A stretch of 64,000 bases of DNA from Minisyncoccia bacterium (GTDB taxonomy: Bacteria; Patescibacteriota; Minisyncoccia; Phycocordibacterales; UBA918): NCBI GenBank assembly GCA_046293175.1, contig JBKBPM010000001.1, positions 171,446-235,445 of the forward strand. The letters are read 5' to 3'. The stretch's first letter is position 1. Each line of letters opens with the position of its first letter. Below, piece after piece: positions 25,222 to 64,000 of the stretch. The position numbers and the translations under genes were made by a program. Under the pieces are notes generated by a model. It ran no database searches. It worked only from the letters and a program-made list of their open reading frames with translations, and was not told the origin of the DNA.

Positions 25222-25262
25222 TCCGTCAAAACACTATTACTCCTATTTGTTGCAGATCTTAT

Positions 25263-34393: not shown

Positions 34394-37159
34394 ATGCGCG
34401 AGGGAGTTCCTCAAGAAAAATTTACTAGTCCTGAAGAAGAGATTGCTTTTTTGCGTGAGCGCATTGCGCTCCGCGAACGGGAATTGCTCTCGCGTCAACC
34501 CGAAGCCGACCATAATGACTTTGAAGCGGTAGCAAAAACCGAACTGCGTGAGTATGGCATGTTTACCCCAAAGGTGATTCTTGATGGTGGTCGAGTGATG
34601 GATGGCCACGAGCTCGCGAGCCTGCAGGAACATATCGCAACTACTCGTACTCCGATCGAGGACATCCTCGTGCTCGCCGCCGAAAAGGGGATTCGCAACG
34701 CACTCTCCGTCCTTGAGAAGGTAAATAATCCGTACGTGATTGATGAAGTGCACCGCTCTCTGATCGAACAAATCAAAGGTGGTATGACGACACAGGACCT
34801 GAAAGAAGGTGTGCCACCATGGCAGATACTCCATATGACACTCTTTGAGGTGACCTTACCAGAGCTCAAAAATAGCCAAGATCGCGAGTATCAATTAGCC
34901 GACCTCATCGGCATGATGGAGCAGCTCTTTCGAGGACTGCGTATCATATCAAGCAAGGATAGCTCACAACATGTAGCGCTTGAGATTGCGGTGGCGGACA
35001 ATAGCGACGACATCGTGTTTTATGCAGCTGTACCAACGGAGTTTGTCACGCTTTTTGAAAAGCAGACGCTCTCGCTGTTTCCGCACGCAGTCCTCAGTGA
35101 ACAAGTCCACGATTACAACATTTTTGTCGATGGGGGAGTGAGTATCATCTCCGAGCTTGGACTTAAGAAGCATCCGATCTATCCGCTCCGGACTCATGAG
35201 GCGTTTTCCTCTGACCCGCTGGCAGTACTTCTTAATGCCTTTTCAAAAATTGAACGAGACGGTGGCGGAGCGGCCGTGCAGTTTCTCTTTCGTCATCCGA
35301 AACAATCGTATCGCAGTTCCTATGAAGAAATTGTAAAACGAGTCAAAAAAGGTATGAAGCCAGCGGAAGCGATTCGTCGTAGTACATTAACTGGTGAAAT
35401 GTTAGCCGGGGTCGGTGAACTCTTTTTCTCAAGTGCCAAACCAAAAGACAGTGTCCCACCTGAGCCAGATCAAGAAGCCCTTGAACTCTTCGCCGAAAAA
35501 CAGAAGGGCGATATTTTCGAAACCAATATCCGTATTGCCGTCTCAGCGCGTGATCAACAAAGAGCCAGAGATATTTTGCGTGAAATCGAAGCGACCTTTG
35601 GACAGTATACACATCTGACCGGTAATCAATTTACCTTCCAACATCGTACTGGCTCGAGTCTTCGTCTCGCCGAAAAAGCCTTTTCATTCCGTGAATTTAA
35701 CGGGAAAATCGCTTTGCCGCTCTCGGAGACTGAGCTCTCGACCATTATTCACTTCCCAGGTAACGGGATTGTTTCTTCACCACAGTTTAAGCAGGCACAC
35801 GCTGCTACGGCCGCCGCTCCAACTGATATGCCCACTACAGGCACACTTTTGGGTATCAACCGCCACCGCAATATCGAAAGGGCAATTTACATGACTGAGA
35901 AAGACCGCATGCGCCACTTCTACGTCATTGGTCAGACTGGTACCGGTAAGTCGGTCTTCCTGCAAAACCTCATTCATCAAGATATCGAGGCCGGCCACGG
36001 TGTCTGTATGATTGACCCGCATGGGACTGATATTCAAACAGTACTCGGCTCCATCCCGGCCCATCGTGAACAGGATGTTATCTACTTTGACCCCTCAAAT
36101 CTCGAGAACCCAATTGGACTTAATATGCTCGAGTACGACGAACGCAAGCCCGAGCAAAAGACCTTTGTCGTGAACGAACTCTTTTCAATCTTCCAAAAGC
36201 TTTACGGGGCAAACCCTGAAAGTATGGGGCCGATGTTCGAGCAATACTTCCGAAACGCTACCTTGCTCGTCATGGAGGATCCGGAGAGTGGTAACACGCT
36301 CATGGATATTAGTCGGGTGATGGCAGATGCCAAGTACCGCCGCATGAAACTCGAAAAGGCTAAGAATCCCGTCGTAGTCCAGTTCTGGCGCGAGATAGCA
36401 ACGAAGGCCGGGGGTGAGGCGTCACTTGAGAATATCGTACCATACATTGTATCTAAGTTCGATGTCTTTACGGCGAACGACTACATGCGACCAATTATTG
36501 GTCAGCAGAAGAGTGCGTTTAACTTCCGGCAGATTATGGACGAGCGGAAGATTCTTCTCGTTAATCTCTCAAAAGGTCGTCTTGGTGAAATCAATGCCAA
36601 CCTCATCGGTATGATTGTGGTGGGGAAGATTCTCATGGCCGCGTTGTCGCGCGTGGATAATCCAGCTATGGATTTTGCACCCTTTTTCCTCCACATCGAT
36701 GAGTTTCAAAATGTTTCGACTCCATCCATTGCGTCAATTCTCTCTGAAGCCCGTAAGTACAAGCTCTCGCTCACCATAGCCCACCAGTTCATCGCGCAGC
36801 TTGATGAAGATATTCGTGATGCGGTGTTTGGAAACGTGGGATCAATTGCCTCATTCCGGGTGGGCTCGGAAGATGCGACCTTCCTTGAAAAACAGTTTGC
36901 CCCGTCATTTGAAGCGAACGACCTTATGAACGTCCCGAACTGGAATGCCTTTGTCCGTATGCTTGCTAATGGCGTGCCCACTAAGCCTTTTAGTCTTGCC
37001 GCCATGCCGCCACCAGCGTCTAATCCTGATCGAGTTGAACTTCTCAAAGAGTTCAGTGCCAAACACTACGGCCGTCCGCGCCACGAGGTTGAGGCGGAGA
37101 TATCCGCACGTTACATCAAGGAAGTACCAGCACTTCCATCTCTTAGTGATATACTGTAG
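34394..37159 (+). CDS. VirB4/TraC/HerA-like P-loop ATPase (DUF87-type; type IV secretion-like)
   Basis: The Walker A region reads HFYVIGQTGTGKSVFL, followed by MIDPHGTD. The Walker B/RK region reads FFLHIDEFQNV...EARKYKLSLTIAHQ, as seen in VirB4/TraC/HerA ATPases. No TM helices are present. Confidence 0.5.
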   Translation: MREGVPQEKFTSPEEEIAFLRERIALRERELLSRQPEADHNDFEAVAKTELREYGMFTPKVILDGGRVMDGHELASLQEHIATTRTPIEDILVLAAEKGIRNALSVLEKVNNPYVIDEVHRSLIEQIKGGMTTQDLKEGVPPWQILHMTLFEVTLPELKNSQDREYQLADLIGMMEQLFRGLRIISSKDSSQHVALEIAVADNSDDIVFYAAVPTEFVTLFEKQTLSLFPHAVLSEQVHDYNIFVDGGVSIISELGLKKHPIYPLRTHEAFSSDPLAVLLNAFSKIERDGGGAAVQFLFRHPKQSYRSSYEEIVKRVKKGMKPAEAIRRSTLTGEMLAGVGELFFSSAKPKDSVPPEPDQEALELFAEKQKGDIFETNIRIAVSARDQQRARDILREIEATFGQYTHLTGNQFTFQHRTGSSLRLAEKAFSFREFNGKIALPLSETELSTIIHFPGNGIVSSPQFKQAHAATAAAPTDMPTTGTLLGINRHRNIERAIYMTEKDRMRHFYVIGQTGTGKSVFLQNLIHQDIEAGHGVCMIDPHGTDIQTVLGSIPAHREQDVIYFDPSNLENPIGLNMLEYDERKPEQKTFVVNELFSIFQKLYGANPESMGPMFEQYFRNATLLVMEDPESGNTLMDISRVMADAKYRRMKLEKAKNPVVVQFWREIATKAGGEASLENIVPYIVSKFDVFTANDYMRPIIGQQKSAFNFRQIMDERKILLVNLSKGRLGEINANLIGMIVVGKILMAALSRVDNPAMDFAPFFLHIDEFQNVSTPSIASILSEARKYKLSLTIAHQFIAQLDEDIRDAVFGNVGSIASFRVGSEDATFLEKQFAPSFEANDLMNVPNWNAFVRMLANGVPTKPFSLAAMPPPASNPDRVELLKEFSAKHYGRPRHEVEAEISARYIKEVPALPSLSDIL

Positions 37160-37164
37160 ACGCT

Positions 37165-40092
37165 ATGTCGCTTGAAGCAAAACAAAAGAATCAATTTGAA
37201 GATAAACCATCAGAGTATAGCGTTGCAACATTACGACAACAGGTGGTTGATTTGTCGTCAAAATTTCCTAATATCAAATATCGTGCAGTCGATAAGCAAG
37301 AAGCAATTCGCAATAATTTTGATCAACTTAAACGATTACTTGATCAACCAGACGAAACACTTCTGTCAGAAAGTGAATGTAACCTTGCTGAAGGATTACT
37401 CACTAATATAAAAACACTCCTCGATTTACCTGTAACAGAAGAGCATCGTAACCGAGTAAATAATCGACCTATTCCTGTTGTCTTGCAAGCAATGCCTGGC
37501 ACAATCAGAGAGTCTGATTCCGCAGCTACTGAAATAGTTCAAGAAGTTAAAGAATCATTCAGTGATACAGATGAATTAATCGATCTTTCTGACAGTGCGC
37601 AGTTTGAACAATATGATCAGGAACTCTTAGAGGCAACAAAAAAAGCCTTTTCAAATCAACAATTTTTTAAGGAACATAGACTTGTACAAGGTCTGCAGGC
37701 CCTCGGAACCATGCGAGTTATTTTTGCGCAATGGGATAGAACATTACAACAAATTAAATCAAATCAACAAAACAATAAAGAAGTCGATACCGGATTGTAT
37801 GAGAAACTGAATAAATATTACAATAAAATCCTCGATTTAATTGAGGTAGTTAATGGTGAAGTCACCACCTTCCGTGCAAACCAAGTAGCTGAAGATGAAA
37901 AAAGTTCGGATAGCAATCCAGTTCTCTCAGGTGATGCTCCTGCTGAAGAAGAATCAATAATTGCTAATGAGTCTATTGTCGCATCTGTATCACCCGCTGC
38001 AGTACCTTTGCCGACTCTTGTATTAACCAATGAAGAGAGGGTAACCGAAGAGTCAGGTGCTCCAGTTACTCTCAAACAGCCGCAAGAATCCACTCAGTCT
38101 CCTGAGGTGTCTGCAACCGAACAAATAAACAACAGCATTATTACCATCGCTGATAAATATAAGGCCGAACGTGAATCACTTGGTCGAGCAGCCGATGAGT
38201 TGTTGGCAAAGCCAAACCTGCCTGCCCACGTGCTACAGTCACTCACTTTTGCGAAGTCTGAAATGCTCGTGCATCTTGAACAACTTTCATATACTGATCC
38301 ACAGTACATGCAGCTTCGCGAACGAGTAAAGGAAGTCATTAACGCAGCACAGCAATTAACTGGCGAAGATATCACTATAGCACCAGCACCAAAAATTGAA
38401 GGAGCTAATCACCATCTCGCACCAGAGACAAGAAAGAAACTCTCAGAGAATTCAAAATTACGAGCTGCTTTGTTAGTTGCTATGGTAGCAATCGTGTCAC
38501 CAAATAATGTATCCGACTATAGTGATAATTTCGTAGTTGCTTCAGCTGACATGAGTTCACCACTCAGTCGAATGGGCGAACATGCGCAGTGGATCGGCGA
38601 TACTGCCAGTGGTATTTTGGCAGCTGCTGAGAAAGATGAGCCTAAAAAATTAGTTGTTGTTCGACCATACACAGGCGAAGAGGAAGTCTCTACGGTAACT
38701 GCTGAAGCTCCAACTGAGACGAGGATTACAAACATGAATTTTGCCTCCAGTGGAGAGACTCCACCCTCGGTTGTGGCTGAAGCTGGATCATTACCAGCGG
38801 TAGACCTCAGCGAAGACAATCTACCAAAAGTATCTGAAATAGTCGTAAATCGTTTTGGTTATGAACCAACCGCTCTTGAAGTTGACACTCGTGAGTCAAT
38901 GGTAACGGCTGCTGATACTTCAGTATCCGAGCCAACAATAACAAAAATAGCTGAACCTGATCCCAAGAGCCCAGCCTACCAAGAAAGTATCGCTCCGACT
39001 GAATCAGTAGCTAGTGGTAATACTGTCGTAGAAGTTTTACAAGGTAATGAAGCAACGTACCCAGACCGAGCTATCGATCCACTCCTCGCGGCTGTTGATG
39101 CAACTGGTATTCCTCTGGTACTCGCGAACAAACTCCGCGCCGAAGAGAAAGAAGCGTTCCTGTCTGACGCCAACCGCCTTCGGGCCGCTGGGGTAGGTAG
39201 TGGTCAAAAGAATGTTACTTTCCCAGGCGAAAAAATCAACTACAGTGACCCGGTAGCAAGACTCGATCAGCGTTTTAATGAGTATCGTCAATACTTAAGT
39301 GTACCCCATACAGAAGTAGCGGTTGAAGGAGACAATCTCACTAAACTCGTGGAGAAGTCATACGCACGTGATCTCGCCGTACTCTCTCCAGCTGATCGCT
39401 TGCCGGTAGTAGAGGAAGCTCTGGCCGCGTATCTTGCAACACCTGGAGCCCTCGAAAATCTCAAGCTTAAGGATAAAGATACTGTTCCAATTGCTGCGGT
39501 CGTGCCACTTCAGGTGTTGGCCCGCTATCTCGCTGATGCGGTGGCTAAAAAAGTTCTCACCGCAAATGAGTCTGGTAGCGCTTCGGAAGTATTGGTAGAT
39601 GATAGTTCAACTGCAGAAACGATTGCAGTAGATGTAGATGCCACTTTTAATGCATCTGAAGAATCAGGTAGTGCTTCAAAAGTTATTGAAGACAGGGGTG
39701 AGCCCGGTGAAGTAACGTCTCCGGAAGAATATCCGGGCGGTGTTATAGCGTTTAGCCAGGCCTATAATCAATTGCTCGAATCGTTTGGTATTGCGATTAA
39801 AGCTCCGGCAATGTTTGATAGCTGGTTTACCGTTAATCGGGCAGAATATAATAATCGAGAATTGCTCGGTATGACCGTAGGGGAGATAACCACTATTATG
39901 ATGCAAGATCCGGTAGAGGTGATGCGTGAGCTCAATGCACGCAAGATAAGTCCTGAAGCCGCTAATGCAGTCTATCAGCTTGTCATTGAAGCACGCAAAA
40001 ATGGTTTGGCTCCGTATGCAACTGACTCGACAATCACACTTGAAGAAGTGATCAAACGAAAGGTGCTCGCCGATGCATCAACTAATAAGTAA
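37165..40092 (+). CDS. large acidic hypothetical protein (975 aa)
   Basis: A long uninterrupted ORF with protein-like composition and low complexity in parts. No family was recognised. Confidence 0.4.
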   Translation: MSLEAKQKNQFEDKPSEYSVATLRQQVVDLSSKFPNIKYRAVDKQEAIRNNFDQLKRLLDQPDETLLSESECNLAEGLLTNIKTLLDLPVTEEHRNRVNNRPIPVVLQAMPGTIRESDSAATEIVQEVKESFSDTDELIDLSDSAQFEQYDQELLEATKKAFSNQQFFKEHRLVQGLQALGTMRVIFAQWDRTLQQIKSNQQNNKEVDTGLYEKLNKYYNKILDLIEVVNGEVTTFRANQVAEDEKSSDSNPVLSGDAPAEEESIIANESIVASVSPAAVPLPTLVLTNEERVTEESGAPVTLKQPQESTQSPEVSATEQINNSIITIADKYKAERESLGRAADELLAKPNLPAHVLQSLTFAKSEMLVHLEQLSYTDPQYMQLRERVKEVINAAQQLTGEDITIAPAPKIEGANHHLAPETRKKLSENSKLRAALLVAMVAIVSPNNVSDYSDNFVVASADMSSPLSRMGEHAQWIGDTASGILAAAEKDEPKKLVVVRPYTGEEEVSTVTAEAPTETRITNMNFASSGETPPSVVAEAGSLPAVDLSEDNLPKVSEIVVNRFGYEPTALEVDTRESMVTAADTSVSEPTITKIAEPDPKSPAYQESIAPTESVASGNTVVEVLQGNEATYPDRAIDPLLAAVDATGIPLVLANKLRAEEKEAFLSDANRLRAAGVGSGQKNVTFPGEKINYSDPVARLDQRFNEYRQYLSVPHTEVAVEGDNLTKLVEKSYARDLAVLSPADRLPVVEEALAAYLATPGALENLKLKDKDTVPIAAVVPLQVLARYLADAVAKKVLTANESGSASEVLVDDSSTAETIAVDVDATFNASEESGSASKVIEDRGEPGEVTSPEEYPGGVIAFSQAYNQLLESFGIAIKAPAMFDSWFTVNRAEYNNRELLGMTVGEITTIMMQDPVEVMRELNARKISPEAANAVYQLVIEARKNGLAPYATDSTITLEEVIKRKVLADASTNK

Positions 40093-40098
40093 CATCCT

Positions 40099-40365
40099 AT
40101 GTCTACCGATAAAATGAATCCTGAAGAAGAACAAGCCTTTGCGGTTTTTATTGCCGCTGTTGAGCGCTATGTGGCGAGTGTCGATGAAGCCTCGGGCGAA
40201 CAATTTGAAGCCTGGCTTGATGAACATGCTGAGACAGAAGACTTGCTGCCGCTACTTTTGCAGACCTATCCAAAATTTGGAGAAATTTTTGCAGACGAAG
40301 TAGAGAAGTTGGGTGCACAAACAAATCAAGATGCGCCTTCACTAGCGGTTACTGAGGAAAACTAG
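40099..40365 (+). CDS. small acidic hypothetical protein
   Basis: An 88-aa ORF rich in Glu/Asp. Confidence 0.3.
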   Translation: MSTDKMNPEEEQAFAVFIAAVERYVASVDEASGEQFEAWLDEHAETEDLLPLLLQTYPKFGEIFADEVEKLGAQTNQDAPSLAVTEEN

Positions 40366-40404
40366 TCGATACTTTTTTGATAGAGTGGTAGTATAAGAAG
40401 TGAT

Positions 40405-41940
40405 ATGGTTCAGGAAGTGCGTTCTTCTGCGACTGAGGTCGTTTTTGATTTACACAGCGAAGCTGGTGTGGTGGCTGCTTTGGCAGCGGTCCGTGGGAGC
40501 AACCTGTCTCGTGAAGAAAAAAACGAACTCCGTGATCTCATTTTTGCTTTCAAAAATGAGCCAGACGCCTCACTTGAAGCGACAATACAAAATTCGCTGG
40601 CAAAGCTTACTCCAGCACAAATAACAACACCAACACCTACTCCAGTTTCGGCTCCTGCGACCATAGGTACAACTGCGGTTTCGGCGGCAGCTGCTACGCC
40701 ACGGTATGGTCTCGGTAACACTCGGCCACAGCCAGTGTTTGCTTCACTTCCCGTCACCACAAAAGTGACAGAAAAACCCGGACCTAATCCAGCCTCAGTA
40801 GTGCCTTCTACAGAAGTAATTGCAGAAGTACCAGTTGTACCACCAAATCTTCCGGTTGCACCAAATAAACCTGAGCCAGACCTAAACGTCACCATTACAC
40901 CACCACCAGTTGATCCGGTTCGTATGGTGCCGGTTTCTGTGGCCGCTTCCGACATGATCCCGAAGGCTGTAGTAGATGAAAAACTCGCGACAGTAGCGCC
41001 TACTCCAGAGCCAAGTATTGAACTCAAGCCACCATACCAAGAAGATCATTCACTTGATGTTTATCGCAATCGTATCACCGAAATCAAGCAATTTATTAAT
41101 CAGAAAGTAGGAAACCCGGTAAACCTGGTTGATCTTGATAATACCGTCGGTCGAGCCTACATGGGAGCACTCCTTGAGGCAATGAAAGCGGTCTCAGGCG
41201 GAGGTGGAGATCCAGTTAGTCTTATGGCGAAGCTTGAAGCTGTCGTCAAAGATGTTGAGAAAATATTGGATACAAAATTAGCTTCAGCGCCACAAGCAAC
41301 CCCAGTGACATCAGCTCCAGTGAGTGTGCCGGTAAAGCCAACGGCTGAGACACCAACAGCTGCAGCAGCAACTGCTCCTGCTATCCCGGTACCACACAAG
41401 GCGTCAGACACTACCGCAATGAGTACACCACCAGTGATTGTGCCATCTATTCCAGTTCGTCGGGTCGAAGAACCAATGACCCCAATCACGCCAGGTGATG
41501 TAGCTCAGTCTCGCTTCAAGAATGTTATACCAGTCACCGCACAGGAGCCTCTCAAGACACCAAAAGATCTCCCAACTGCCGCTGAAGTAAAAGCCCGCTC
41601 AGGCATTACTGACCCACTGGCTGATCCAGATGTGGATCTTGGTCTCGAACAACTATTGAGTGAATGGTCTCTATTTCGCAAGAGTGGGGTTTTTGGCACC
41701 GGTCCTAAAGGGACACAACACCCACTTTATCAAAAGCTTGCGGTACTCCAGATGCCACTGATTTTATCTGGTCGGTTTGAGGGTTCAACGCCTGAAATCC
41801 GACAGAGTATCACCGACTATATGAATGGTTGGCGCTATGAACAGGGTATTATCTACGAGCAAGAAGAAACCTTTGAACACTACCTCCGCCGCGTGATTCG
41901 TCATATCATCGATTCACAAACCAGACGCCGTGCTGCATAA
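40405..41940 (+). CDS. Pro/Thr/Ala-rich hypothetical protein with a structured C-terminal domain
   Basis: It contains long PTPTP/PAPA tracts. The C-terminal ~120 aa are not low-complexity. Confidence 0.4.
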   Translation: MVQEVRSSATEVVFDLHSEAGVVAALAAVRGSNLSREEKNELRDLIFAFKNEPDASLEATIQNSLAKLTPAQITTPTPTPVSAPATIGTTAVSAAAATPRYGLGNTRPQPVFASLPVTTKVTEKPGPNPASVVPSTEVIAEVPVVPPNLPVAPNKPEPDLNVTITPPPVDPVRMVPVSVAASDMIPKAVVDEKLATVAPTPEPSIELKPPYQEDHSLDVYRNRITEIKQFINQKVGNPVNLVDLDNTVGRAYMGALLEAMKAVSGGGGDPVSLMAKLEAVVKDVEKILDTKLASAPQATPVTSAPVSVPVKPTAETPTAAAATAPAIPVPHKASDTTAMSTPPVIVPSIPVRRVEEPMTPITPGDVAQSRFKNVIPVTAQEPLKTPKDLPTAAEVKARSGITDPLADPDVDLGLEQLLSEWSLFRKSGVFGTGPKGTQHPLYQKLAVLQMPLILSGRFEGSTPEIRQSITDYMNGWRYEQGIIYEQEETFEHYLRRVIRHIIDSQTRRRAA

Positions 41941-54776: not shown

Positions 54777-57700
54777 ATGAATTTTATTTTCATGAGGAGG
54801 TTTCATTCATTTTCTAATATGCAAAGTCGTTATTCTTTGGTTGCGGTAGCAAGGACAGTGTTAGTATCGTTTCTAACACTGTCTTTTTTGTTAGTGTCGA
54901 GTATTCCTGCCGAAGTTTTTGCTGAGGAAAGTGCTGGTACAACCGAGATATCAAATGCTACCACTCCACCCGCGGACACCCCTGTTAGTGAAATCGAGAA
55001 TACGAATCCTGAAACTGTAACACCAAATGATGATACAGAGCCTCCAGTTGAAGAATCTGCAGAACAGCTTACAGAAGTTTCTGATCCCGAAGCAGTAGAT
55101 ACAGAAGAGGATCCTGAAAAAGCACCCGTAGAAGAATTAGAGCCAGAATCAATGGCAGCCATGGGTGCAGGTGGTGCTTCTGGGTCTGGTGACGCTTCAC
55201 CACTCAAGACTTCTTTAGTTGATTCAACCAGCGGCTCATTTCAAACAAATTATGGCATTGTGGTTCCGCCTGGTCGAAACGGCATGCAACCGAACCTGAG
55301 TCTGGGGTACGACGGGGGAGCAAACAGTCAAACAAGTGTATTTGGGTACGGTTGGGATATTAGTATCCCATACATTTCACGTATGAATAAAACTGGTAGT
55401 GAAAATCTCTACGCCACTTCCAGTTATTTCTACTCGTCACTTTCTGGCGAATTGGTTCCTACTGGAGTAACTAATGAATATCGTGCTCGAGTCGAATCAG
55501 GAAGTTTCCTAAAATATGTATATTCCAATAGTGTTTGGACAGTAACAGACAAGTCTGGCCGGACGTATACATTTGGCTCAGCGAGTACTACCAGGCAAGA
55601 TAACCCTAGTGATAGTAACCAGATATACCGCTGGTATATTGCCGAAGAGCGTGACACTAATAATAATGCAATCAGTTACAGTTACTATAAAAATGCAGGG
55701 CAGATTTATCCTGATACCATTTATTACACCAAAAATGGTGCAGATAATGGTATTTTTTCAGTACAGTTTGAACGTGAATCACGGACAGATGTCGTAACAT
55801 CGTACCAAGCTCGTTTTGCTGTGAAAAGTAACTATCGAATTAAAAAGATAGTTGCTTATGTTGATGGTGTGGCTGCACGAAGCTATGCGCTTGCTTATAC
55901 AAATGGTGATAACCAAAAACGTTCACTTCTTTCAACAATTACTGAATCTGGCACTGAAGGAAGTGTTACAACTACGCGGCTAGCTCAATCATTCGAATAC
56001 AAAAATACTAGCACTGAGGGTTGGACTTCAACATCAACATGGTCTACTCCCGAACCATTTTCAAGCAATAGTCTTGATACAGGGTTGCGACTAGTTGACG
56101 TAAACGGTGACAGTTACCAAGATTTAGTTCGCTTCTACGGCACTCAAGGTGGTCAAGAATTTAAATCAATTTATATTAATAACGGATTAAATGGTTGGAC
56201 TAGTACAACGACTTGGAACTGGTCAGATATGAACTTATGGTTTTCAGTGGAAGGTTCTACACAAAATTCACGTAATGATTATGGAACAAGATTCCTTGAT
56301 GTTAATGGTGATGGTTTAACCGATGCTATTACTGGATTTGATAACCTTGATGGTTGGAGTGACTACAAGGTTGTCTATATTAATAATGGAAGCGGCTGGG
56401 CAAGTTCAACCTGGGTTTTGCCAGTGTTTATTACAAAAAAATTAGGCGGTAGCTCAACTTATGACTTGGGTGTACGAACAGGAGATATTAATGGTGATAG
56501 ATTGCCAGATATAGTCGTATCTTACGTAAATGGTTCTGGTGCTACAAGTCAAGAAGTTTACTTAAATAATGGTCAAAATGGGTGGAGCCAAACAACATCA
56601 TGGGTAGTGCCTGAGCCATTTACAAATTGTGCAACTTGTACAAATCCTGGTCTAGATTTAGGAACACACCTAATTGATGTTAATGGTGATGGTCTCGATG
56701 ATGTTGTTAGAAGCTACTCAACATCCGGAACAAGCACCAATAAAGTTTATCTCAATACTGGTACAAATTGGGTACTGGACAGCAGTGTCCAGTTACCTAC
56801 TTACTTTGTTATGACAGGCGACTCTGGCCTACGTTGGGTAGAAGTAAATGGTGATGGTTTGATTGATCTTGTTAGAAACGCAACTACATCTAGAGTAACT
56901 TATTTGAATAGTGGTACAGGTTGGACAAGCCTTGGTCAGCTTCCACCAACTCAAATGCCATTTATTACAACATCAGGTGATAGTGGTGTTCGTGCCGTTG
57001 ATATTGACGGAGATGGTCAATCAGATCTAATTGGAAATACTGGCAGCACTACTTATCTTAATAGTCGAGGTTTTGGTGATTCTCTAACACAAATCACTTT
57101 TCCTCAAGGTGGTAAAATTATAGCTTCATATCAGGGTTCTGCTGAATATCGAAGCGGAAGTCAAATCTTAAACCCAAAAATTCCCTACACCTTCACAACA
57201 GTCTCACAGATACAATATGACTCCAATAATGATGCTATATGGACTGAATCATATCTATACGAAGATGGATTCTATCACTATGCGAGTACGAGTTTTCGTG
57301 ACCGTACTTTTTCAGGTTTTGGCAAAATAACCAAAACCAGTCCTCGTGCTAAGACAGTATCGTATTACCACCAGAATAATGACACTAATAGTAGCAATGG
57401 TGAGACGACAGATTCATACGCCAAGATTGGGCTTGAGTATAAAACGTTCGTCAACGACCTTGCTGGCAATAATTATATTACAAATGTGACAAAATGGTCT
57501 GAATCAGCATTGCCCGGTGGCGCGTCATATATAAGCCAACAGTCACAGGCAACACTATCGCATGATGGCGATAGTGATCATCGGGACATGGCTGTTGAAT
57601 ATAGCTACGATACCAATAATGGTAATCTGCTACAAAAAATTGAATATGGCGAAGTTACTGGAGCTACAGATGGCACCTTTACTGATACCGGCACGGACAA

Positions 57701-60700
57701 ATATACTACCGCATTTACATACGGCGCCAGCTCAACAAATCCGTTATTTACACTAACGATTCAAGCTTCAACTACAGACCAGCAAAACGTCCTAACAAGA
57801 TTAACTAAATACTATTACGATAATAGCACTTTTGGCAGCGTGACTAAAGGTAACCTTACCAAACAAGAAGACTGGGCCACTTCAACCACATATAGTACCC
57901 GTCAATGGGAATATAATACTTTCGGCCTAGTAGGTACGACAACTGATCCACGCGGTAATGTATCAAGTGTGCGATATGACTCTCATAATTTATATCCCTC
58001 ACTCGCTAAAAATGCCCTTGGACACATAACGACCTCAACTTATGATTATTCAAACGGACAGGTCAAAACAAATATTGATGCTAATAGCGCACTGTATACT
58101 TTCAATTATGATGGCCTTGATAGACTGCTTGAAGAGTATGTGCCTGATCCAAACAATGGTAGCTCCACTGTGCTTAAAAATGCATACACCTATTTCGACA
58201 CCAGTTTGCCATATCGTGTTCACCAGTCACGATACTTAAACCAGTATTTAACAGTAGATTCTAATACATATCTCGATGGATTTGGACAAGTCATTCAAAC
58301 TCGTCAAGATATGGAACAGTTCAATAAGTATGCGGTAACTGACTTTGTGTACGATGATGGTGTGTTGATTCGTGAATCCGTCCCGTACCAAGCAAATGGA
58401 TCTGGCTATAGTCCGTCAACGAGCAATACAAACCGACTACGTACTTATAGTTATGATGCGCTGGATCGAAAAATTACCATAGCTGATATGCGTGGTACGA
58501 GCACCCTCGCATACGATCAATGGCAGACGCTTGCGACTGATCCATTGTCTCGTACAAAAAAGACAAATAATGATGCGTACGGAAACCTCGTGAGTGTAAT
58601 TGAACGCAATAGTGGTGTTGATTACACGACAACGTATACCTATGACTACGGAGGTAAACTGACCAGCCTCACAGACGCCCTTAGTAATGTACGTAAATTC
58701 ACTTACGATGGATTAGGTCGACGTCTCTATGCAGAAGATCTTCATGTGGCGACCAGTAGTTCGTTTGGTGTTTGGCGCTATCAATACGACCTGGCAGGTA
58801 ATCTCGGTACTTCTACCAACCCGCGAGGACAAATTGTAGCGTATACGTACGATGCACTTAATCGAACATTGACCGAAAATGCAGCTAGTTCAACCGGAGT
58901 TGAAACTTCTTATACCTACGACTCCTGTACTAAGGGTGTTGGTAAACTTTGTACAGTTGTAGTTGCATTTGCCACTACAACCTATGGTTACAACAACCTT
59001 GGTTCGATGGCAACTGAAACCAAACAAATTCGCGGAACAACCTACACAACCAGTTACCAGTATGACCGACAAGGTAATCAGACAATGGTGCAGTACCCTG
59101 ACAATTCCGTAGTTCGCAATACCTATAATAATGCTGGCTTACTCGATAAAGTTGAACAAAAAGAAAATGGCGGACTATTCAAGAACGTTGTTACAGCTCT
59201 AGATTACAGTCCTGCCCAGAAAGTGACCCTAGAAGCTATAGCGAACGGAGCAACTACTACCAAAACCTACGATTCAATACATCGTCTTACTAATATTTTG
59301 ACCACAACCACTGGAACCACTACACCAAGTCAATGTCCTAGTTATATTCTTGGATCCGGTCTTGATACTAACCTGATATCGTATTGGAACCATAATGAGT
59401 ATTCTTCTGGTTCAGGCGCAGTTACTAGGTTTGATAGTAAAGGAACTAATCACCTAACAGATTTCAACACAACTCTGTCGACTGTAGGTATGATTGATAC
59501 TGCGTCAGATTTGGAAGTTGCAAATACAGAACGACTTACTATTACAGATGCGGCACAGACAGGTCTTGACACTCAAAATGACATGACCTTCGCAACTTGG
59601 CTTAAGTTTGAGAGTCTGCCTGGTACAAACGGACGTATGTACGTAGTCCAAAAAGAAGATATCTTCAAATTTGCACCAGATTTCGATGTAAATGGTACTG
59701 ACTACTTGCGATTGTATCTCCGTGATGCATCAGGTTACTATCACAATTCGGTTTCGTGGGTGCCATTCGTTGATACATGGTATCATGTTGCATTTACCAG
59801 AAATCAAACAACCGGAGCCCTTAAATTCTATGTGAATGGTCAACAGCAGGGTTCAACAATAATGACGGGTAGAACAGCATCTCTGTTAAATTCTGTTGAA
59901 GATTTCAATATCGGTGCTAATCCTGGAGAATTTGATGGTGCGGTTGATGAGACAGCAATTTGGTCACGCGTACTGACTGATACTGAAATCGCCTGTCTCT
60001 ATAATAATGGTGGTGGCATTTCATACAGCTTGGGTGGAATAGGTGGTGGCGGTGAAGCAATGAGACTTCTTGCCATGTCTGAGTCTGAACAAATACTGAA
60101 ATCCGCCGACTATTCGGGATCTGATACACAAGAAATAACTGTCAAAACCGATATAACTGCTTCTTCGACAATTGCAGCCTATGATGTATATAAACAGCAA
60201 CTTAACTCAGCTGATGCAAGTGAAAAGGCAACTCTAAAAGGCCAGATGATTGCTGAAAAAGTAATATCAGGCAGACGAGTTGACCGAAAAGAGTTTAAGA
60301 TAGATTTGTTTGGTGTTGAGCCAATAGATGGAGGACTACAGGTGTACCTTCGCGCCTTTGATGCCCAAGGCAATCAACTTGGCTTTGGTAAAGATGGCAC
60401 GATTGATATTGAACGCTTCAAGATATACAATCCGCCAATTAGCGTGCCTGATGGTACTTACCGAGATGAAGAAATTGAAAAACTTAGTGGAGGTACCCAA
60501 ATTATTAAGTCCCCTAACTTTAAAGATGATCCTGAGGAAGCTTTATATCAGGTATTAGAACAAACAATCAAACTTACTGGTAAGAGTGGTACAAAAATCG
60601 TCCCTAAAAAAATCGGTCGAACCACTAGTGTGTTCTATCCAGATGCGAACCCAGAGAGTTCTTCAGTTGACGGATGGACTCAGTATGAAAGTACACAAAT

Positions 60701-62804
60701 TTCGTGGTCAGCTATTCGCACGGCAAATGGAACTGGATCTGGAGATACTGATGCAACACGATACGTATTGGCAGCTGCCGCTGGTACAGCGACTAGTACA
60801 TTTAATAACCTTCGTCGTGGAATCTTCGTCTTTAACACTGCACCGATTGCAGACACCGATTACATTAGTGGAGCGACACTCTCATTTGTTGCTACAGCAA
60901 AAGGTGATCATGATGCAATAAATGAACGCTTTGCGAACCTGACGAGTGCGTCAACTGCATCAAATGTCGCGATTGCTGCTTCTGATTATCAGTCTCAGTC
61001 GGTACATACCACAAAACTTTCTACGGATAAAAGCATCAAATACGATATAGTTGCTGATAGTAGCACCTATACTGACTGGACACTAAATAGCGATGGTTTG
61101 GCTAACATCAGTACCAGTTCGGTTTCTAAGTTTGGTCTAAGATTTGTTGAAGATATTAGCAGTACTACCATGCCATGGAACTCTGGTTACAATTACGGCA
61201 TATCGATCAGACTGGCAGATACAGCCAATACTTCACTTGATCCAAAACTAGTAGTTGAACACAGTGCTACTTCATCACCAGTAGCAACAACCACCACCAT
61301 TCAAAACATCGCCTACACCTACGATGCGGTGGATAATATTACGCAGATTACTGACACATCAACAACTTTAGCAGCGAAGACTGTACAATTTACTTATGAT
61401 GACCTTAACCGCCTCACGAGAGCCTCAACTACAGTTGCTTCTTCTACACCATTCCTAGAGCAGTACACATACAATGCGATTGGTAATCTACTGACCAAAA
61501 CTGGACAGGGGACATACAGCTACGCTGGTACTGGCTTCGCGAACCCACACGCCCCAACCACCATTGGTACTTCCACCCTCACCTACGACCAAAATGGCAA
61601 CCTCGCCTCATACAACGGTGTGACGTATACCAGTAACTACAAAAACCAACTCACCACCCTCACCAAAAACAGCACCACCACCAAGTACACCTACGACCAC
61701 CAGGGCCAGCGCCTCGAAAAAGCCCGGGGCACCGGTACTACCACCTACGCCTCTGGCGGGTACGAAGTAGCACCAACCGGCGTCACCAAATACATCTACG
61801 CTGGTGGGGAACTAGTAGCCACCATCGCTGGTATAGGAACTACTACTACTACTACTACCTCCTATATCCATCGGGACCACCTATCCTCTACGAATGTAAC
61901 TACGAACCAAAGTGGAGGAGTATCTACCGTCTTAGACTACTACCCGTACGGCTCCACTCGTATCGAGACTGGCACACCACCTCAGAAACAATATATTGGC
62001 CAATACGATGACTCTGAATCAGATCTGGCGTACCTTAATGCGAGGTACTACGACCCAACACGTGGCCAATTTACCTCACAAGACCCCATGCACTGGGCGA
62101 TACCTGCCAATCTCATCGTCGACCCACAATTACAGAACTCGTATGGGTATGCCAAAAATAATCCGATTATCTATAAGGATCCAAATGGTGATATTCCTGT
62201 ACTAGTTGCTCTGTTTGGGGGCGCTGCACTGGCTGGTGCGATTGGTCAAGGTATCGAAGATATTGCGTCAGGTCAACTTTCTGGTTGGCAAGATTATGCA
62301 GGTGCAGCTGCTGGTGGTATGACAGGAATGGCTGCAGCACTAACAACGAAAAATCCTTTTGCCATTGGTGGAGTAACCTCGGGTAGTGAACAATTGTATA
62401 CAAATCTTCTTACAGGTGAAGAGGCAATGAGTGATGTGTTTTCTGAATCAGGTAAAGGCATAATTTTTGGTGGATTTATTGATTTGCGTATCCCTCTACT
62501 GTCTAAAGGTGCTAATAATATTTCAGCACGTACTCAAAGCATTATCACGAAGGTATCAAATGGTACAGTGTCAAATGCTTCTTTAAAAACTGTAAGAAAT
62601 GTCAGTATTTCTCAGTCTGTAAACAGTACCGCTCAATCTACATACAACGGTGTTGAGCATCGTTTATCAAACTCACAAGTAAAAAATGCGTCAAACAATA
62701 TAGAAAAGGCAACCAAAGCTTTTCAGAGCGGTAATTATACTGTAAGTCTCCGTTATTTGGAGAAAGCCAATCAGAATTTAAACAGTAACAAAAAGAAAAA
62801 ATAA
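54777..62804 (+). CDS. Rhs/YD-repeat polymorphic toxin (2675 aa) with a signal peptide, SpvB-like N-terminal region, FG-GAP-like repeats, YD repeats interrupted by a LamG-like domain, an Rhs core terminus and a Gly-zipper C-terminal domain
   Basis: The SpvB-like region reads ...GRNGMQPNLSLGYDGGANSQTSVFGYGWDISIPYISR. Six or more VDVNGDGLxD repeats span 56.09-57.04 kb. Many YTYDxxGNL YD repeats follow. A LamG-like block (...WYHVAFTRNQTTGALKFYVNGQQQG...DETAIWSRVLTDTEI) sits at about 59.33-60.02 kb. The core terminus reads ...LAYLNARYYDPTRGQFTSQDPM. The C-terminal ~235 aa are Gly/Ala-rich (GGAALAGAIGQGI...GAAAGGMTGMAAAL). Confidence 0.85.
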   Translation: MNFIFMRRFHSFSNMQSRYSLVAVARTVLVSFLTLSFLLVSSIPAEVFAEESAGTTEISNATTPPADTPVSEIENTNPETVTPNDDTEPPVEESAEQLTEVSDPEAVDTEEDPEKAPVEELEPESMAAMGAGGASGSGDASPLKTSLVDSTSGSFQTNYGIVVPPGRNGMQPNLSLGYDGGANSQTSVFGYGWDISIPYISRMNKTGSENLYATSSYFYSSLSGELVPTGVTNEYRARVESGSFLKYVYSNSVWTVTDKSGRTYTFGSASTTRQDNPSDSNQIYRWYIAEERDTNNNAISYSYYKNAGQIYPDTIYYTKNGADNGIFSVQFERESRTDVVTSYQARFAVKSNYRIKKIVAYVDGVAARSYALAYTNGDNQKRSLLSTITESGTEGSVTTTRLAQSFEYKNTSTEGWTSTSTWSTPEPFSSNSLDTGLRLVDVNGDSYQDLVRFYGTQGGQEFKSIYINNGLNGWTSTTTWNWSDMNLWFSVEGSTQNSRNDYGTRFLDVNGDGLTDAITGFDNLDGWSDYKVVYINNGSGWASSTWVLPVFITKKLGGSSTYDLGVRTGDINGDRLPDIVVSYVNGSGATSQEVYLNNGQNGWSQTTSWVVPEPFTNCATCTNPGLDLGTHLIDVNGDGLDDVVRSYSTSGTSTNKVYLNTGTNWVLDSSVQLPTYFVMTGDSGLRWVEVNGDGLIDLVRNATTSRVTYLNSGTGWTSLGQLPPTQMPFITTSGDSGVRAVDIDGDGQSDLIGNTGSTTYLNSRGFGDSLTQITFPQGGKIIASYQGSAEYRSGSQILNPKIPYTFTTVSQIQYDSNNDAIWTESYLYEDGFYHYASTSFRDRTFSGFGKITKTSPRAKTVSYYHQNNDTNSSNGETTDSYAKIGLEYKTFVNDLAGNNYITNVTKWSESALPGGASYISQQSQATLSHDGDSDHRDMAVEYSYDTNNGNLLQKIEYGEVTGATDGTFTDTGTDKYTTAFTYGASSTNPLFTLTIQASTTDQQNVLTRLTKYYYDNSTFGSVTKGNLTKQEDWATSTTYSTRQWEYNTFGLVGTTTDPRGNVSSVRYDSHNLYPSLAKNALGHITTSTYDYSNGQVKTNIDANSALYTFNYDGLDRLLEEYVPDPNNGSSTVLKNAYTYFDTSLPYRVHQSRYLNQYLTVDSNTYLDGFGQVIQTRQDMEQFNKYAVTDFVYDDGVLIRESVPYQANGSGYSPSTSNTNRLRTYSYDALDRKITIADMRGTSTLAYDQWQTLATDPLSRTKKTNNDAYGNLVSVIERNSGVDYTTTYTYDYGGKLTSLTDALSNVRKFTYDGLGRRLYAEDLHVATSSSFGVWRYQYDLAGNLGTSTNPRGQIVAYTYDALNRTLTENAASSTGVETSYTYDSCTKGVGKLCTVVVAFATTTYGYNNLGSMATETKQIRGTTYTTSYQYDRQGNQTMVQYPDNSVVRNTYNNAGLLDKVEQKENGGLFKNVVTALDYSPAQKVTLEAIANGATTTKTYDSIHRLTNILTTTTGTTTPSQCPSYILGSGLDTNLISYWNHNEYSSGSGAVTRFDSKGTNHLTDFNTTLSTVGMIDTASDLEVANTERLTITDAAQTGLDTQNDMTFATWLKFESLPGTNGRMYVVQKEDIFKFAPDFDVNGTDYLRLYLRDASGYYHNSVSWVPFVDTWYHVAFTRNQTTGALKFYVNGQQQGSTIMTGRTASLLNSVEDFNIGANPGEFDGAVDETAIWSRVLTDTEIACLYNNGGGISYSLGGIGGGGEAMRLLAMSESEQILKSADYSGSDTQEITVKTDITASSTIAAYDVYKQQLNSADASEKATLKGQMIAEKVISGRRVDRKEFKIDLFGVEPIDGGLQVYLRAFDAQGNQLGFGKDGTIDIERFKIYNPPISVPDGTYRDEEIEKLSGGTQIIKSPNFKDDPEEALYQVLEQTIKLTGKSGTKIVPKKIGRTTSVFYPDANPESSSVDGWTQYESTQISWSAIRTANGTGSGDTDATRYVLAAAAGTATSTFNNLRRGIFVFNTAPIADTDYISGATLSFVATAKGDHDAINERFANLTSASTASNVAIAASDYQSQSVHTTKLSTDKSIKYDIVADSSTYTDWTLNSDGLANISTSSVSKFGLRFVEDISSTTMPWNSGYNYGISIRLADTANTSLDPKLVVEHSATSSPVATTTTIQNIAYTYDAVDNITQITDTSTTLAAKTVQFTYDDLNRLTRASTTVASSTPFLEQYTYNAIGNLLTKTGQGTYSYAGTGFANPHAPTTIGTSTLTYDQNGNLASYNGVTYTSNYKNQLTTLTKNSTTTKYTYDHQGQRLEKARGTGTTTYASGGYEVAPTGVTKYIYAGGELVATIAGIGTTTTTTTSYIHRDHLSSTNVTTNQSGGVSTVLDYYPYGSTRIETGTPPQKQYIGQYDDSESDLAYLNARYYDPTRGQFTSQDPMHWAIPANLIVDPQLQNSYGYAKNNPIIYKDPNGDIPVLVALFGGAALAGAIGQGIEDIASGQLSGWQDYAGAAAGGMTGMAAALTTKNPFAIGGVTSGSEQLYTNLLTGEEAMSDVFSESGKGIIFGGFIDLRIPLLSKGANNISARTQSIITKVSNGTVSNASLKTVRNVSISQSVNSTAQSTYNGVEHRLSNSQVKNASNNIEKATKAFQSGNYTVSLRYLEKANQNLNSNKKKK

Positions 62805-62805
62805 T

Positions 62806-63360
62806 ATGTTGAACTATATTCCACGAAATTGGGTGTGGTATGTTGTTGCCTTAATATTGTTTGGTCCATATATTCTGATTAACGTTATGGAAAACGATAT
62901 GCTAGCTAGAATAATTGGTTTAGGTTTTATTCCAAATGGCGTAGTCTTAATATTACTTTATACAATTCTTAGTAAAGGATATGATTGGATTCAACCAACA
63001 GAGTGGTTTGAAAAAAAACTTCAAAAAGTAAATAAAGGAAAAATACTCATCTTCAGTAAAATATTTCTTTTTGGAGTATTAGTTCTTTTTCTACCCTTGT
63101 CATTAGGCTATTTCAAAGATGTTGTTTTGGTAAAAGATGGTTTAGCCCCAATGACATTTATTGCAACAATTTCTGATATACGAGTTGGTAAAGGTGCTCT
63201 AAATCTATATATTTATTTTGATGATCAGAATGAGAAAATGTCTGCTTATTATTTCTCCCGCAACACCTTTGAAGAAGGGTACACATATAAGTTCTGGTAC
63301 TTGCCAAATACTCGTCAGATAGTTAAAGCAGAACTCATATCCACCAACGAAACACAATGA
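62806..63360 (+). CDS. small multi-TM membrane protein, candidate immunity protein for the Rhs C-terminal domain
   Basis: A 184-aa protein with three TM helices begins 2 nt after the rhs stop. It is very AT-rich, and its stop overlaps the start of the downstream fragment (ATGA). Confidence 0.45.
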   Translation: MLNYIPRNWVWYVVALILFGPYILINVMENDMLARIIGLGFIPNGVVLILLYTILSKGYDWIQPTEWFEKKLQKVNKGKILIFSKIFLFGVLVLFLPLSLGYFKDVVLVKDGLAPMTFIATISDIRVGKGALNLYIYFDDQNEKMSAYYFSRNTFEEGYTYKFWYLPNTRQIVKAELISTNETQ

Positions 63361-63716
63361 CTACCCTCCAGAAAAATAGTACCACCACCTCATACACCTA
63401 CGACCACCTCGGCCAGCGTCTCGAAAAAGCCCGTGGTACCGGTACTACCACGTATGTGGGCGGTGGGTACGAAGTAGCACCAACTGGAGTCACCAAGTAT
63501 ATCTACGCTGGTGGGGAACTGGTAGCCACCATCGCTGGTATAGGAACTACTACTACCTCCTATATCCATCGGGACCACCTATCCTCTACGAATGTAACTA
63601 CGAACCAAAGTGGAGGAGTATCTACCGTCTTAGACTACTACCCGTACGGCTCCACTTGTATCGATATGGGTATACACCGAGTTAGCGGAACGAAATATTT
63701 AATTTATCAAATTTAA
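63357..63716 (+). pseudogene. orphan Rhs core fragment (119 aa) homologous to residues ~2290-2390 of the main Rhs protein
   Basis: TTLQKNSTTTSYTYDHLGQRLEKARGTGTTTYVGGGYEVAPTGVTKYIYAGGELVATIAGIGTTTTSYIHRDHLSSTNVTTNQSGGVSTVLDYYPYGST is near-identical to the main gene. The fragment diverges and terminates before the DPxG core end, with no toxin domain. Confidence 0.6.
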
Positions 63717-63726
63717 ACAGACTCCA

Positions 63727-63752
63727 AAAACCCACCAATTGGTGGTTTTTTA
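63727..63752 (+). terminator. Rho-independent terminator
   Basis: AAAACCCACCAATTGGTGGTTTTTT contains a palindromic stem followed by a T-run. Confidence 0.6.
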
Positions 63753-64000
63753 TTTTGTATCCAATAATCCCCAAAATGTGTGCACAAGTGGCTTGTGGGT
63801 GGGATGAAGTGGTGTATAGTGTAGTTGTGGTGGGAGATAGTGGTATAGAACGAAAGTTCTAGACAGATCCACAACTATCTCTGACAGCAGTCAGCATCGC
63901 TCCACCGATGGTGGCTGGTGTCAGGGATGGAAGTGGAATAGCTATCAAGACAACATTATGTTAATCGGGGAATATCGCCACACACTTGATCCTAAGAAAC

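Follow-up and report, generated by a model that had tools for sequence, protein, structure and literature searches.

A predicted Rhs polymorphic toxin of Patescibacteria with a Tc-like shell, an exchangeable tip and a shuffled lectin-type cassette

Among the closest described systems, Tc toxins follow cargo rules that include a size of >~20 kDa, a net positive charge and translocation of the C-terminal region first (10.1101/706333); WapA of Streptococcus suis is Sec-dependent and carries a DNRLRE-type domain, with an N-terminal wall-binding LysM domain in WapA-CT1 (PMC12704120); Tse5 of Pseudomonas aeruginosa is an Rhs effector with a pore-forming tip and an integral membrane immunity protein, Tsi5 (PMC9637101); and the ionophore toxins of contact-dependent growth inhibition (CDI) are paired with CdiI proteins (PMC11630599). 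The 64,000-nucleotide stretch of the Minisyncoccia bacterium contig JBKBPM010000001.1 analyzed here (hereafter, the window) encodes a giant Rhs protein that appears to unite an encapsulation shell of the Tc type with a toxin tip and a lectin cassette, both of them swappable (Table 1). A large part of bacterial diversity is patescibacterial, and how these bacteria recognize, hold or kill other cells is poorly understood. About 1% of a very small genome is spent on a single, putatively secreted protein, in this locus and in hundreds of loci like it. The locus is informative for CPR (candidate phyla radiation) biology.

The gene belongs to the known kind of Rhs polymorphic toxins, and its protein sequence is already deposited: the product is 100% identical to a protein (P0001) annotated as ‘LamG-like jellyroll fold domain-containing protein’ of a Candidatus Paceibacteria bacterium, encoded on a 676-kb contig of a metagenome-assembled Candidatus Paceibacteria genome. 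The NCBI start call is at position 54819, 14 codons downstream of the start used here. A first-pass annotation made from the letters alone had called SpvB, FG-GAP, YD-repeat, LamG and Rhs core domains, and every one of these was recovered by hidden Markov model (HMM) searches of Pfam and NCBIfam. A lack of significant HMM matches had been named beforehand as grounds for giving up these calls; the matches are significant, and the Pfam matches quoted here all exceed the curated cut-offs. Together, the SpvB, FG-GAP, TcdB_toxin_midN and core matches uphold the view of this Rhs polymorphic-toxin locus as one with a Tc-B/C-like shell. As far as can be judged from the sequence, a TcB-like half (SpvB, propeller, TcdB-midN) and a TcC-like half (YD shell, Rhs core) are joined in one polypeptide.

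The D[VI]NGD-type motifs of the FG-GAP blades lie at amino acids (aa) 441, 508, 570, 634, 689 and 742, and the blades probably form a six-bladed beta-propeller like the gate domain of TcB. The YD repeats are recognized by RHS_repeat (PF05593, E 6e-14, 4–10 stretches) and by NCBIfam YD_repeat_2x (TIGR01643), and aa 1222–1512 match the PDB sequences of Tse5 (8cp6) and of an Rhs protein (7q97). The Laminin_G_3 match scores 80.1 bits against a gathering threshold of 27.6 and covers positions 12–151 of the 151 in the profile. The core contains the aspartyl-protease-type motifs RYYDP at 2423, SQDPM at 2434 and NNPIIYKDPNGD at 2461–2472, the last ending in KDPNGD (2467–2472), with Asp where Leu usually follows DPxG. 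Because these protease motifs are intact, release of the C-terminal domain (CTD) is predicted. Multiple YD/RHS repeats and an Rhs core with protease motifs are among the defining features of Rhs polymorphic toxins.

Hydropathy points to a signal peptide of the kind found in WapA-type toxins, and the N-termini of homologues align with that of the Rhs protein from aa ~13–37. A Pfam scan of the Rhs protein shows no N-terminal wall-binding domain such as the LysM domain of S. suis WapA-CT1. The region that encodes the signal peptide also contains, at 54849–54888, a near-perfect 14-bp hairpin with a T-run behind it (-27.4 kcal/mol, z = -6.3; 0 of 200 shuffles fold as well), which could act as an attenuator or make translation pause, or could simply result from the repetitive hydrophobic codons.

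Homologues of the Rhs protein are numerous. At the search threshold of E <= 1e-10 there are 658 of them, those with named sources coming mostly from Paceibacteria or Parcubacteria; the best 120 of the 658 were used for the detailed comparisons below, and all share the SpvB, FG-GAP and YD-shell backbone. With hundreds of homologues, mostly from the same phylum, the build is a common one in this lineage, so that its description as unusual in the first-pass annotation holds only beside the studied Rhs and Tc proteins, the family itself having no experimentally studied member. Ig_Rha78A_N, DUF5011, DUF2341 or Gly_rich_2 domains occur somewhere in the protein in other members of the family. A full-text literature search found no paper describing this CPR Rhs family, and no description of a fixed hot spot at which lectin-type cassettes are inserted and shuffled, of homology between the cassette module and a gene of the phage tail-fiber region, or of the CTD family.

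The homologues also show how the shell varies. Four proteins of ~2000 aa (P0039, P0042, P0011 and P0026) join the equivalents of query aa ~1–1513 directly to ~2173, and it follows that the LamG domain and the block after it, listed separately in the first-pass annotation, constitute one insertion whose limits (aa ~1514–2172), as set by these insert-free homologues, agree with the coordinates given for the two blocks. The insertion point lies in the YD shell ~300 aa before the core end, and the limits of the insert fall within 1–2 residues of the site used by 79 of the 120 homologues, which come from independent assemblies. At this site, these 79 proteins have between 40 and >1100 aa, and the other 41 have <40 aa, in many cases only 1–2. 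The content varies as well: a ~360-aa module is found there in 39 of the 120 homologues, LamG in 6 and both in 2, and in 8 proteins the module is located elsewhere; P0002 has the module without LamG, and in P0037 LamG comes after the module, the reverse of the order in the window. The occupancy of the site across the homologues indicates an insertion hot spot with shuffled content, that is, a second polymorphic region beside the toxin tip. Insertion at the junction between TcB and TcC was considered and rejected: the TcC shell comprises ~680 aa, compared with the ~300 aa that separate the site from the core end.

The segment of ~400 aa that the first-pass annotation had left unassigned indeed lacks any Pfam match (aa 1750–2180, even at E 10), and the module within it has no NCBIfam match when the whole protein is scanned; nevertheless, it can now be assigned to a recurrent CBM96/DNRLRE-like module with a homologous phage gene. 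Local BLAST detects aa ~1814–2170 in 55 of the 120 homologues, sometimes twice in the same protein. Structure prediction, which had been proposed for aa 1750–2170, yielded a confident AlphaFold2 model of the module (predicted local distance difference test, pLDDT, 81.6; predicted template modeling score, pTM, 0.85; 20-sequence alignment A1). It comprises two short helices, a sheet/helix domain at the N-terminal end and a beta-sandwich at the C-terminal end (aa ~1959–2164). In this model, the C-terminal half adopts a CBM96/DNRLRE-like sugar-binding fold. The identity to the CBM96/DNRLRE structures 7vbo (alginate-binding) and 8wab (chondroitin-sulfate-binding) is only 12–13%, and the module has an extra N-terminal domain of ~150 aa. 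That the module occupies several sites and also exists as a free gene could be accounted for by an intein or another mobile element, an interpretation rejected on the grounds that the fold is that of a beta-sandwich carbohydrate-binding module rather than of a Hint domain or an endonuclease.

The relatives of the module connect it to phages. The best matches among predicted viral structures are viral proteins that equal the module in size (361 aa, E 1.5e-18); next come a phage protein annotated as ‘CBM96 domain-containing protein’, then a pectate lyase and tail-fiber proteins. A scan of species-representative genomes identified 42 module loci, nearly all in metagenome-assembled genomes of Patescibacteria, where the module is either part of SpvB–FG-GAP–YD giants, in at least three positions, or a free gene of 360–460 aa in same-strand gene arrays. 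In the IMG/VR scan (49 module loci), the module is a stand-alone frame of 240–650 aa with no SpvB or YD sequence nearby in all 48 loci that could be analyzed. Among 142 neighboring ORFs (open reading frames) from eight viral loci, PHROGs matches include the terminase large subunit, the major head protein and many tail and tail-fiber families. Five viral contigs were examined closely for gene order: the module gene lies between a tape-measure gene and a baseplate-wedge-like, LamG-containing protein in one (L064), between two tail-fiber-like proteins in another (L053) and directly after a collagen-like tail-fiber gene in the remaining three (L048, L058 and L076; E 1.5e-49, 1.4e-46 and 3.4e-14, respectively).

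A tblastn search of GenBank phage records gave no match to the module, hence its phage relatives are all uncultivated. The neighbors of two stand-alone module genes (L032 and L027) have essentially no PHROGs or Pfam matches. Binding of a cell-surface polymer would be the most economical explanation for a module with this predicted fold in both the phage and the Rhs contexts. A separate observation concerns the 61,280-bp contig CAYIPF010000001.1 from a ‘Saccharibacteria’ bin, in which the module gene is found at both ends with identical scores (L027 and L028); this redundancy suggests that the bin includes a complete phage genome, either circular or terminally redundant.

The tip of the Rhs protein was described in the first-pass annotation as Gly/Ala-rich and glycine-zipper-like, and both composition and motifs bear this out: the first ~100 residues of the CTD contain 20% Gly and 15% Ala, and [GAS]xxx[GAS]xxx[GAS] motifs are stacked at 2478–2492 and 2509–2521. 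The CTD is predicted to be all-helical, with a hydrophobic segment at aa 2468–2497. It is a ~21 kDa domain with an isoelectric point (pI) of 9.46, the N-terminal half being acidic and the C-terminal half, which ends in KKKK, having a pI of 10.5, compared with 4.86 for the shell; the size and charge agree with the rules for Tc cargo. Pfam and PDB profile searches found no relative of the CTD, characterized pore-forming and ionophoric tips included, and a weak match to Bflower_2 was dismissed (17.8 bits against a cut-off of 38). A hydrophobic or amphipathic helical bundle accompanied by a membrane-embedded immunity protein, as predicted here, is the arrangement expected of a pore-forming or ionophoric tip.

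An exhaustive HMMER search (E <= 1e-3) delineates a CTD family of 103 representative clusters, and in nearly every protein listed, the match is at or near the C-terminal end. A strict motif for the Rhs core end precedes the CTD in 52 clusters out of 103, and most of the others are fragments or have, immediately before the CTD, a slightly divergent core end. The cores are of two types, a CPR type (NSYSYAxNNPIxxKDPxG) and a proteobacterial type (DPIGxxGGxNLYxYVxNDPxNxxDPxGL). Two motifs are conserved in the CTD alignment (A3), GxGALVGxxGQGIxDLxxGxxSxWQDYxGAAxGGAxG and PGxTxGRNSxxAIxxQxxTKxxNGTIxN. Having no Pfam model, this family is ready for description as a new one, as is the ~360-aa module.

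Among the close homologues, only 2 of 120 have this CTD; the rest carry different tips, some of which are recognized toxin domains such as Ntox44. Basic tips are the rule in the Rhs family (median CTD pI 9.15; pI >8 in 77%), and a K/R-rich tail (at least three K/R in the last 12 residues) terminates 57 of 100 tips. At their extreme C-terminus, unrelated tips share a helix motif (..G[DN]Y..A..YL..A...) that leads into a K/R-rich tail, including that in the window (62700–62801) and those of P0004, P0022, P0047, P0075, P0078 and others. This shared element may be a common leader for export from the cocoon or for translocation, independent of toxin type.

The gene downstream of the Rhs gene begins 1 nt past its stop codon. 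The first-pass annotation had proposed the small product with three transmembrane (TM) segments as a plausible immunity protein, an assignment strengthened by this spacing and by co-divergence with the CTD. The closest CTD relative, with 50% identity (P0121, locus L093), is followed by a protein 53% identical to the 184-aa protein of the window, and loci with CTDs of only 30–32% identity (L094 and L095) likewise continue with TM proteins of the same build. Downstream of the CTD of P0091 (32% identity), at a distance of 7 nt, is a protein of 176 aa that has three TM segments and whose C-terminal motif is weakly similar, and the CTD of P0016 (30% identity) is followed, again after 7 nt, by a 91-aa protein with three TM segments. 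Of the 21 family loci inspected, most have a small ORF that starts within ~25 nt of the Rhs stop. That the downstream gene co-occurs and co-diverges with the CTD, the pattern to be expected of a toxin and its immunity protein, supports its identification as the gene for the cognate immunity protein.

Two features absent from the first-pass annotation are an orphan core fragment (63357..63716) and a pair of direct repeats on either side of the toxin and immunity genes. The sequence at 61643–61977 is repeated at 63350–63675 with 85–95% identity, so that the pair brackets the toxin tip and the immunity gene; the orphan copy loses homology after ...YYPYGST, and no toxin domain follows. P0121 represents the intact form of such an orphan cassette, as it begins with MLVLTKNTTTTQY... 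at the same core position where the repeat in the window starts. Orphans with other tips are found in loci related to that of the window. Orphan core–CT fragments and repeats that permit tip replacement are characteristic of Rhs polymorphic toxins, and the 335-bp repeats with the truncated orphan look like the scar of one such replacement.

Several observations on related loci pertain to the same process. In L093 (positions 1–2879), a tandem array consists of a different tip, a soluble 140-aa immunity-like protein, an orphan core with a CTD of the window family and a TM immunity homologue; on this gene order, the same tip would be ‘silent’ in the L093 genome and in an expressed position in the window. 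Eight of the 21 related loci (L002, L003, L009, L011, L013, L015, L022 and L040) contain, on the same strand and ~0.5–4 kb downstream of the Rhs gene, a gene for an IS200-like Y1 transposase of 223–227 aa (PF01797, E 1e-14 to 1e-17 in the two scanned), and another neighbor cluster occurs in 7 loci, its two scanned members (L019 and L026) being large serine recombinases. Neither the transposase nor the recombinase cluster is present in the window. Apart from these, the neighbors in the 21 loci are housekeeping genes, small TM proteins and orphan cassettes. A link between the transposases or recombinases and cassette turnover is possible.

Taken together, these features fit, with fair probability, a self-contained, Sec-exported Rhs ‘cocoon’ toxin that has a membrane-depolarizing tip, a cognate membrane immunity protein and an outward glycan-binding cassette and is aimed at neighboring bacteria. 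The protein would be exported via the signal peptide, with the YD shell closing around the basic CTD and the core aspartyl protease freeing the latter at about DPNG(D)2472. The cassette, consisting of LamG and the CBM96-like module, would be positioned outside the shell, where it could bind the surface polysaccharide of the target or hold the toxin on the surface of the producer. Once freed, the four Gly/Ala-rich helices of the CTD would insert into the cytoplasmic membrane of the target and dissipate the membrane potential, and the co-translated three-TM protein would block the CTD in the membrane of the producer itself. The repeats and the truncated orphan would have been left by a swap of the tip and immunity cassette through homologous recombination. 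The likeliest targets would be neighboring bacteria, possibly related Patescibacteria, given that phages found with these genomes use the same module.

Several points weigh against this proposal. Toxicity, autoproteolysis, glycan binding and secretion are all inferred, and the outward orientation of the insert is deduced from its size only. [quoted passage not shown] The hosts of the viral contigs are unknown, which makes the step from phages that use the module to a related CPR cell as the target a weak one, and both AlphaFold2 models were built on alignments of only 20 sequences.

The retained propeller is the starting point for a different, rather improbable explanation, under which the protein is the BC part of a three-component Tc toxin: a TcA-like translocator encoded elsewhere in the genome would dock on the propeller and inject the CTD tail first, possibly into a host or a eukaryote. 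SpvB, the six FG-GAP blades and TcdB_toxin_midN are all retained, and the cationic ~21-kDa cargo with its lysine-rich extreme C-terminus fits the published rules (10.1101/706333). However, no TcA-like gene is present among the ten scanned upstream ORFs of the window, and no TcA-like family appears among the neighbors within 6 kb that are common to at least three of the 21 related loci; Pfam (E <= 0.01) did not report TcdB_toxin_midC in the Rhs protein. Moreover, the protein itself carries a putative signal peptide and lectin-like domains, the latter being located on TcA in Tc toxins, and the genome is only a few hundred kb, whereas a TcA gene takes up ~7.5 kb. A candidate immunity gene adjoins the toxin gene, an arrangement typical of antibacterial Rhs and WapA toxins.

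Similarly unlikely is a role as an adhesin or a teneurin-like surface receptor whose LamG and CBM-like domains keep an episymbiont attached to the host, with the CTD as a membrane anchor or a signal. Such a role would account for lectin-like domains on a YD shell, for the TEN_YD-shell matches recorded for P0001 and many of the homologues and for the hydrophobic segment of the CTD, and it would suit the lifestyle of the phylum, in which all cultivated members are episymbionts (PMC12206443). It is hard to reconcile with the intact protease motifs of the Rhs core, with a CTD that is one of many interchangeable tips, Ntox44 among them, and that co-varies with a tightly coupled downstream TM protein, and with the occurrence of the CTD family on proteobacterial-type Rhs cores too; orphan cassettes and recombination repeats are hallmarks of toxin–immunity turnover. 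Finally, a chimera of an Rhs gene with phage or lectin DNA across 59.3–61.3 kb, which the first-pass annotation had raised as an assembly artifact, or a decaying pseudogene can be rejected as next to impossible: the insert is homologous to phage genes, the sign of the GC (guanine plus cytosine) skew flips across 58–62 kb and exact-product look-ups returned no record of the full protein or of P0001, with only a 1.6-kb contig bearing the immunity gene recovered, but the frame is open over 8 kb, GC content is even over the gene (0.40–0.45), independent assemblies have inserts at exactly the same site (79 of 120 homologues, 39 with the same module there), the identical NCBI protein comes from a 676-kb contig and a separate Logan assembly reproduces 61929–63551 exactly.

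Beyond the cocoon toxin proposed here for the window, a broader and more speculative idea, itself doubtful, is that Rhs cocoons of Patescibacteria are polymorphic both at the tip and at the exterior-facing shell cassette and exchange modules of the latter with the tail-fiber gene region of phages of the same bacteria. The toxin would be re-aimed by borrowed phage receptor-binding domains and would act as an autonomous one-protein delivery device without TcA, T6SS or the type VII secretion system. If the cassette sets the target range, the link to phage tail fibers would provide a testable rule for who attacks whom. If true, this would be a natural case of a retargeted protein-delivery cocoon, with relevance to the engineering of Tc and Rhs shells.

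The genomic surroundings of the locus are largely ordinary. Upstream, the window encodes housekeeping proteins, namely, prolyl- and lysyl/aspartyl-type tRNA synthetases, MreB, MreC, a PBP2-type transpeptidase and a UbiA-family enzyme; no RNA families were detected in the window. The start of a mraZ-like ORF (MLIGEYRHTLDPKK..., 63959–64000) closes the window and thus places the Rhs locus between the UbiA-family gene and the start of a probable division and cell-wall gene cluster. A homologous Rhs gene in L094 (4822–18043) is flanked by ftsW and murG, and such clusters may be a repeated site of Rhs loci in these genomes. Elsewhere in the window, GC content drops to 0.371 at 24001–26000, compared with 0.45–0.51 in the remainder and with the also lower 0.40–0.45 of the Rhs region, and this DNA may have been acquired horizontally. 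At 34394–41940, a 921-aa VirD4/TraG-like coupling ATPase (T4SS-DNA_transf, TraG-D_C, DUF87) precedes two ORFs, of 975 and 511 aa, without Pfam matches, a set that may represent a type IV secretion or DNA-uptake module.

Table 1. Coordinates of the features of the Rhs locus in the window.
Feature	Position	Strand	Basis and remarks
Rhs/YD-repeat polymorphic toxin gene	54777..62804	+	2675 aa; ORF list and translation
Probable Sec signal peptide, aa 1–49	54777..54923	+	Hydropathy scan; basic N-region, hydrophobic core aa 19–49, then ...EVFA/EE
Acidic Pro/Glu/Thr-rich linker, aa 50–150	54924..55226	+	Translation; no Pfam match
SpvB/TcaC-type N-terminal domain, aa 151–309	55227..55703	+	PF03534, E 4.4e-12, 46 bits (cut-off 22)
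Six FG-GAP-like blades, aa ~440–750	56094..57026	+	Pfam FG-GAP_3 E 6e-15, FG-GAP E 1e-9; DNA repeat family D3
TcdB_toxin_midN-like region, aa 731–857	56967..57347	+	PF12256, E 2e-9
First YD-repeat shell block, aa ~858–1513	57348..59315	+	RHS_repeat, YD_repeat_2x
657-aa insertion, aa ~1514–2172	59316..61292	+	Homologues without insert; site statistics over 120 homologues
Laminin_G_3 (concanavalin-A-like lectin) domain, aa 1595–1739	59559..59993	+	PF13385, E 2.6e-22
Recurrent ~360-aa module, aa ~1814–2170	60216..61286	+	Homologous to stand-alone phage gene, tail-fiber region
Second YD-repeat shell block, aa 2173–2387	61293..61937	+	Aligns with 120/120 homologues
Direct repeat, upstream copy, in core-encoding DNA	61643..61977	+	Begins at ...LTTLTKNSTTT; repeat families D1, D2
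Rhs-associated core domain, aa 2388–2471	61938..62189	+	TIGR03696 (Rhs_assc_core), 60.6 bits against a cut-off of 32.5
C-terminal toxin domain (predicted), aa 2472–2675, 204 aa	62190..62804	+	Four Gly/Ala-rich hydrophobic helices, GRNS...TK..NGT motif region, lysine-rich tail
Candidate immunity protein, 184 aa	62806..63360	+	Hydropathy: hydrophobic segments aa 8–30, 31–57, 75–110; ~75-aa C-terminal domain
Truncated orphan Rhs core fragment	63350..63716	+	ORF 63357..63716; homology to 61643–61977 to ~63675
Terminator-like hairpin, closes locus	63732..63755	+	CCACCAATTGGTGG, then T-run

The Tc BC cocoons, such as TcdB2–TccC3 of Photorhabdus and YenB–YenC2 of Yersinia, resemble the Rhs protein in having an SpvB-type N-terminus, a pseudo-six-fold FG-GAP propeller, TcdB-midN and a YD shell that ends in an Rhs core with the aspartyl-protease motif and encapsulates a basic cargo of ~20–30 kDa. 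Unlike in these cocoons, the B and C parts are here one polypeptide with ~1700 shell residues and a putative Sec signal peptide, accompanied by a candidate immunity gene and orphan cassettes and with lectin-like domains inserted in the shell; there is no TcA found nearby, TcdB_toxin_midC is not detected, and the cargo looks membrane-active rather than enzymatic. WapA, both in Bacillus subtilis and as WapA-CT1 in S. suis, likewise combines a signal peptide on a giant Rhs protein with a polymorphic tip, an adjacent immunity gene and truncated Rhs-CT fragments downstream. The domains listed for WapA (PMC12704120) include neither SpvB nor an FG-GAP propeller, and the carbohydrate-binding-like domains of the Rhs protein, unlike those of WapA, sit inside the YD shell sequence; among the scanned neighbors in the window, there is no sortase gene.

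Tse5 shares with the Rhs protein the enclosure of a hydrophobic, helix-rich CTD, which in Tse5 depolarizes membranes, in an Rhs shell, and the YD repeats of the two match in sequence, whereas no sequence similarity was found between the CTDs; Tse5 differs further in its PAAR-like N-terminus, its delivery by T6SS and the lack of SpvB, the propeller and lectin inserts. Functional counterparts of the tip would be the CDI ionophore toxins (CdiA-CT EC93 family) and other depolarizing toxins with a glycine zipper, such as EsxX, which are small helical bundles, some with a putative glycine-zipper, at the C-terminus of polymorphic toxins; the immunity proteins of these toxins are hydrophobic, membrane-localized, polymorphic and specific to their own toxin. 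The carrier and the delivery route differ, and no homology was detected. What sets the CTD family apart is a further polar motif that is conserved (PGxTxGRNS...TKxxNGTIxN), together with a C-terminal half that is basic.

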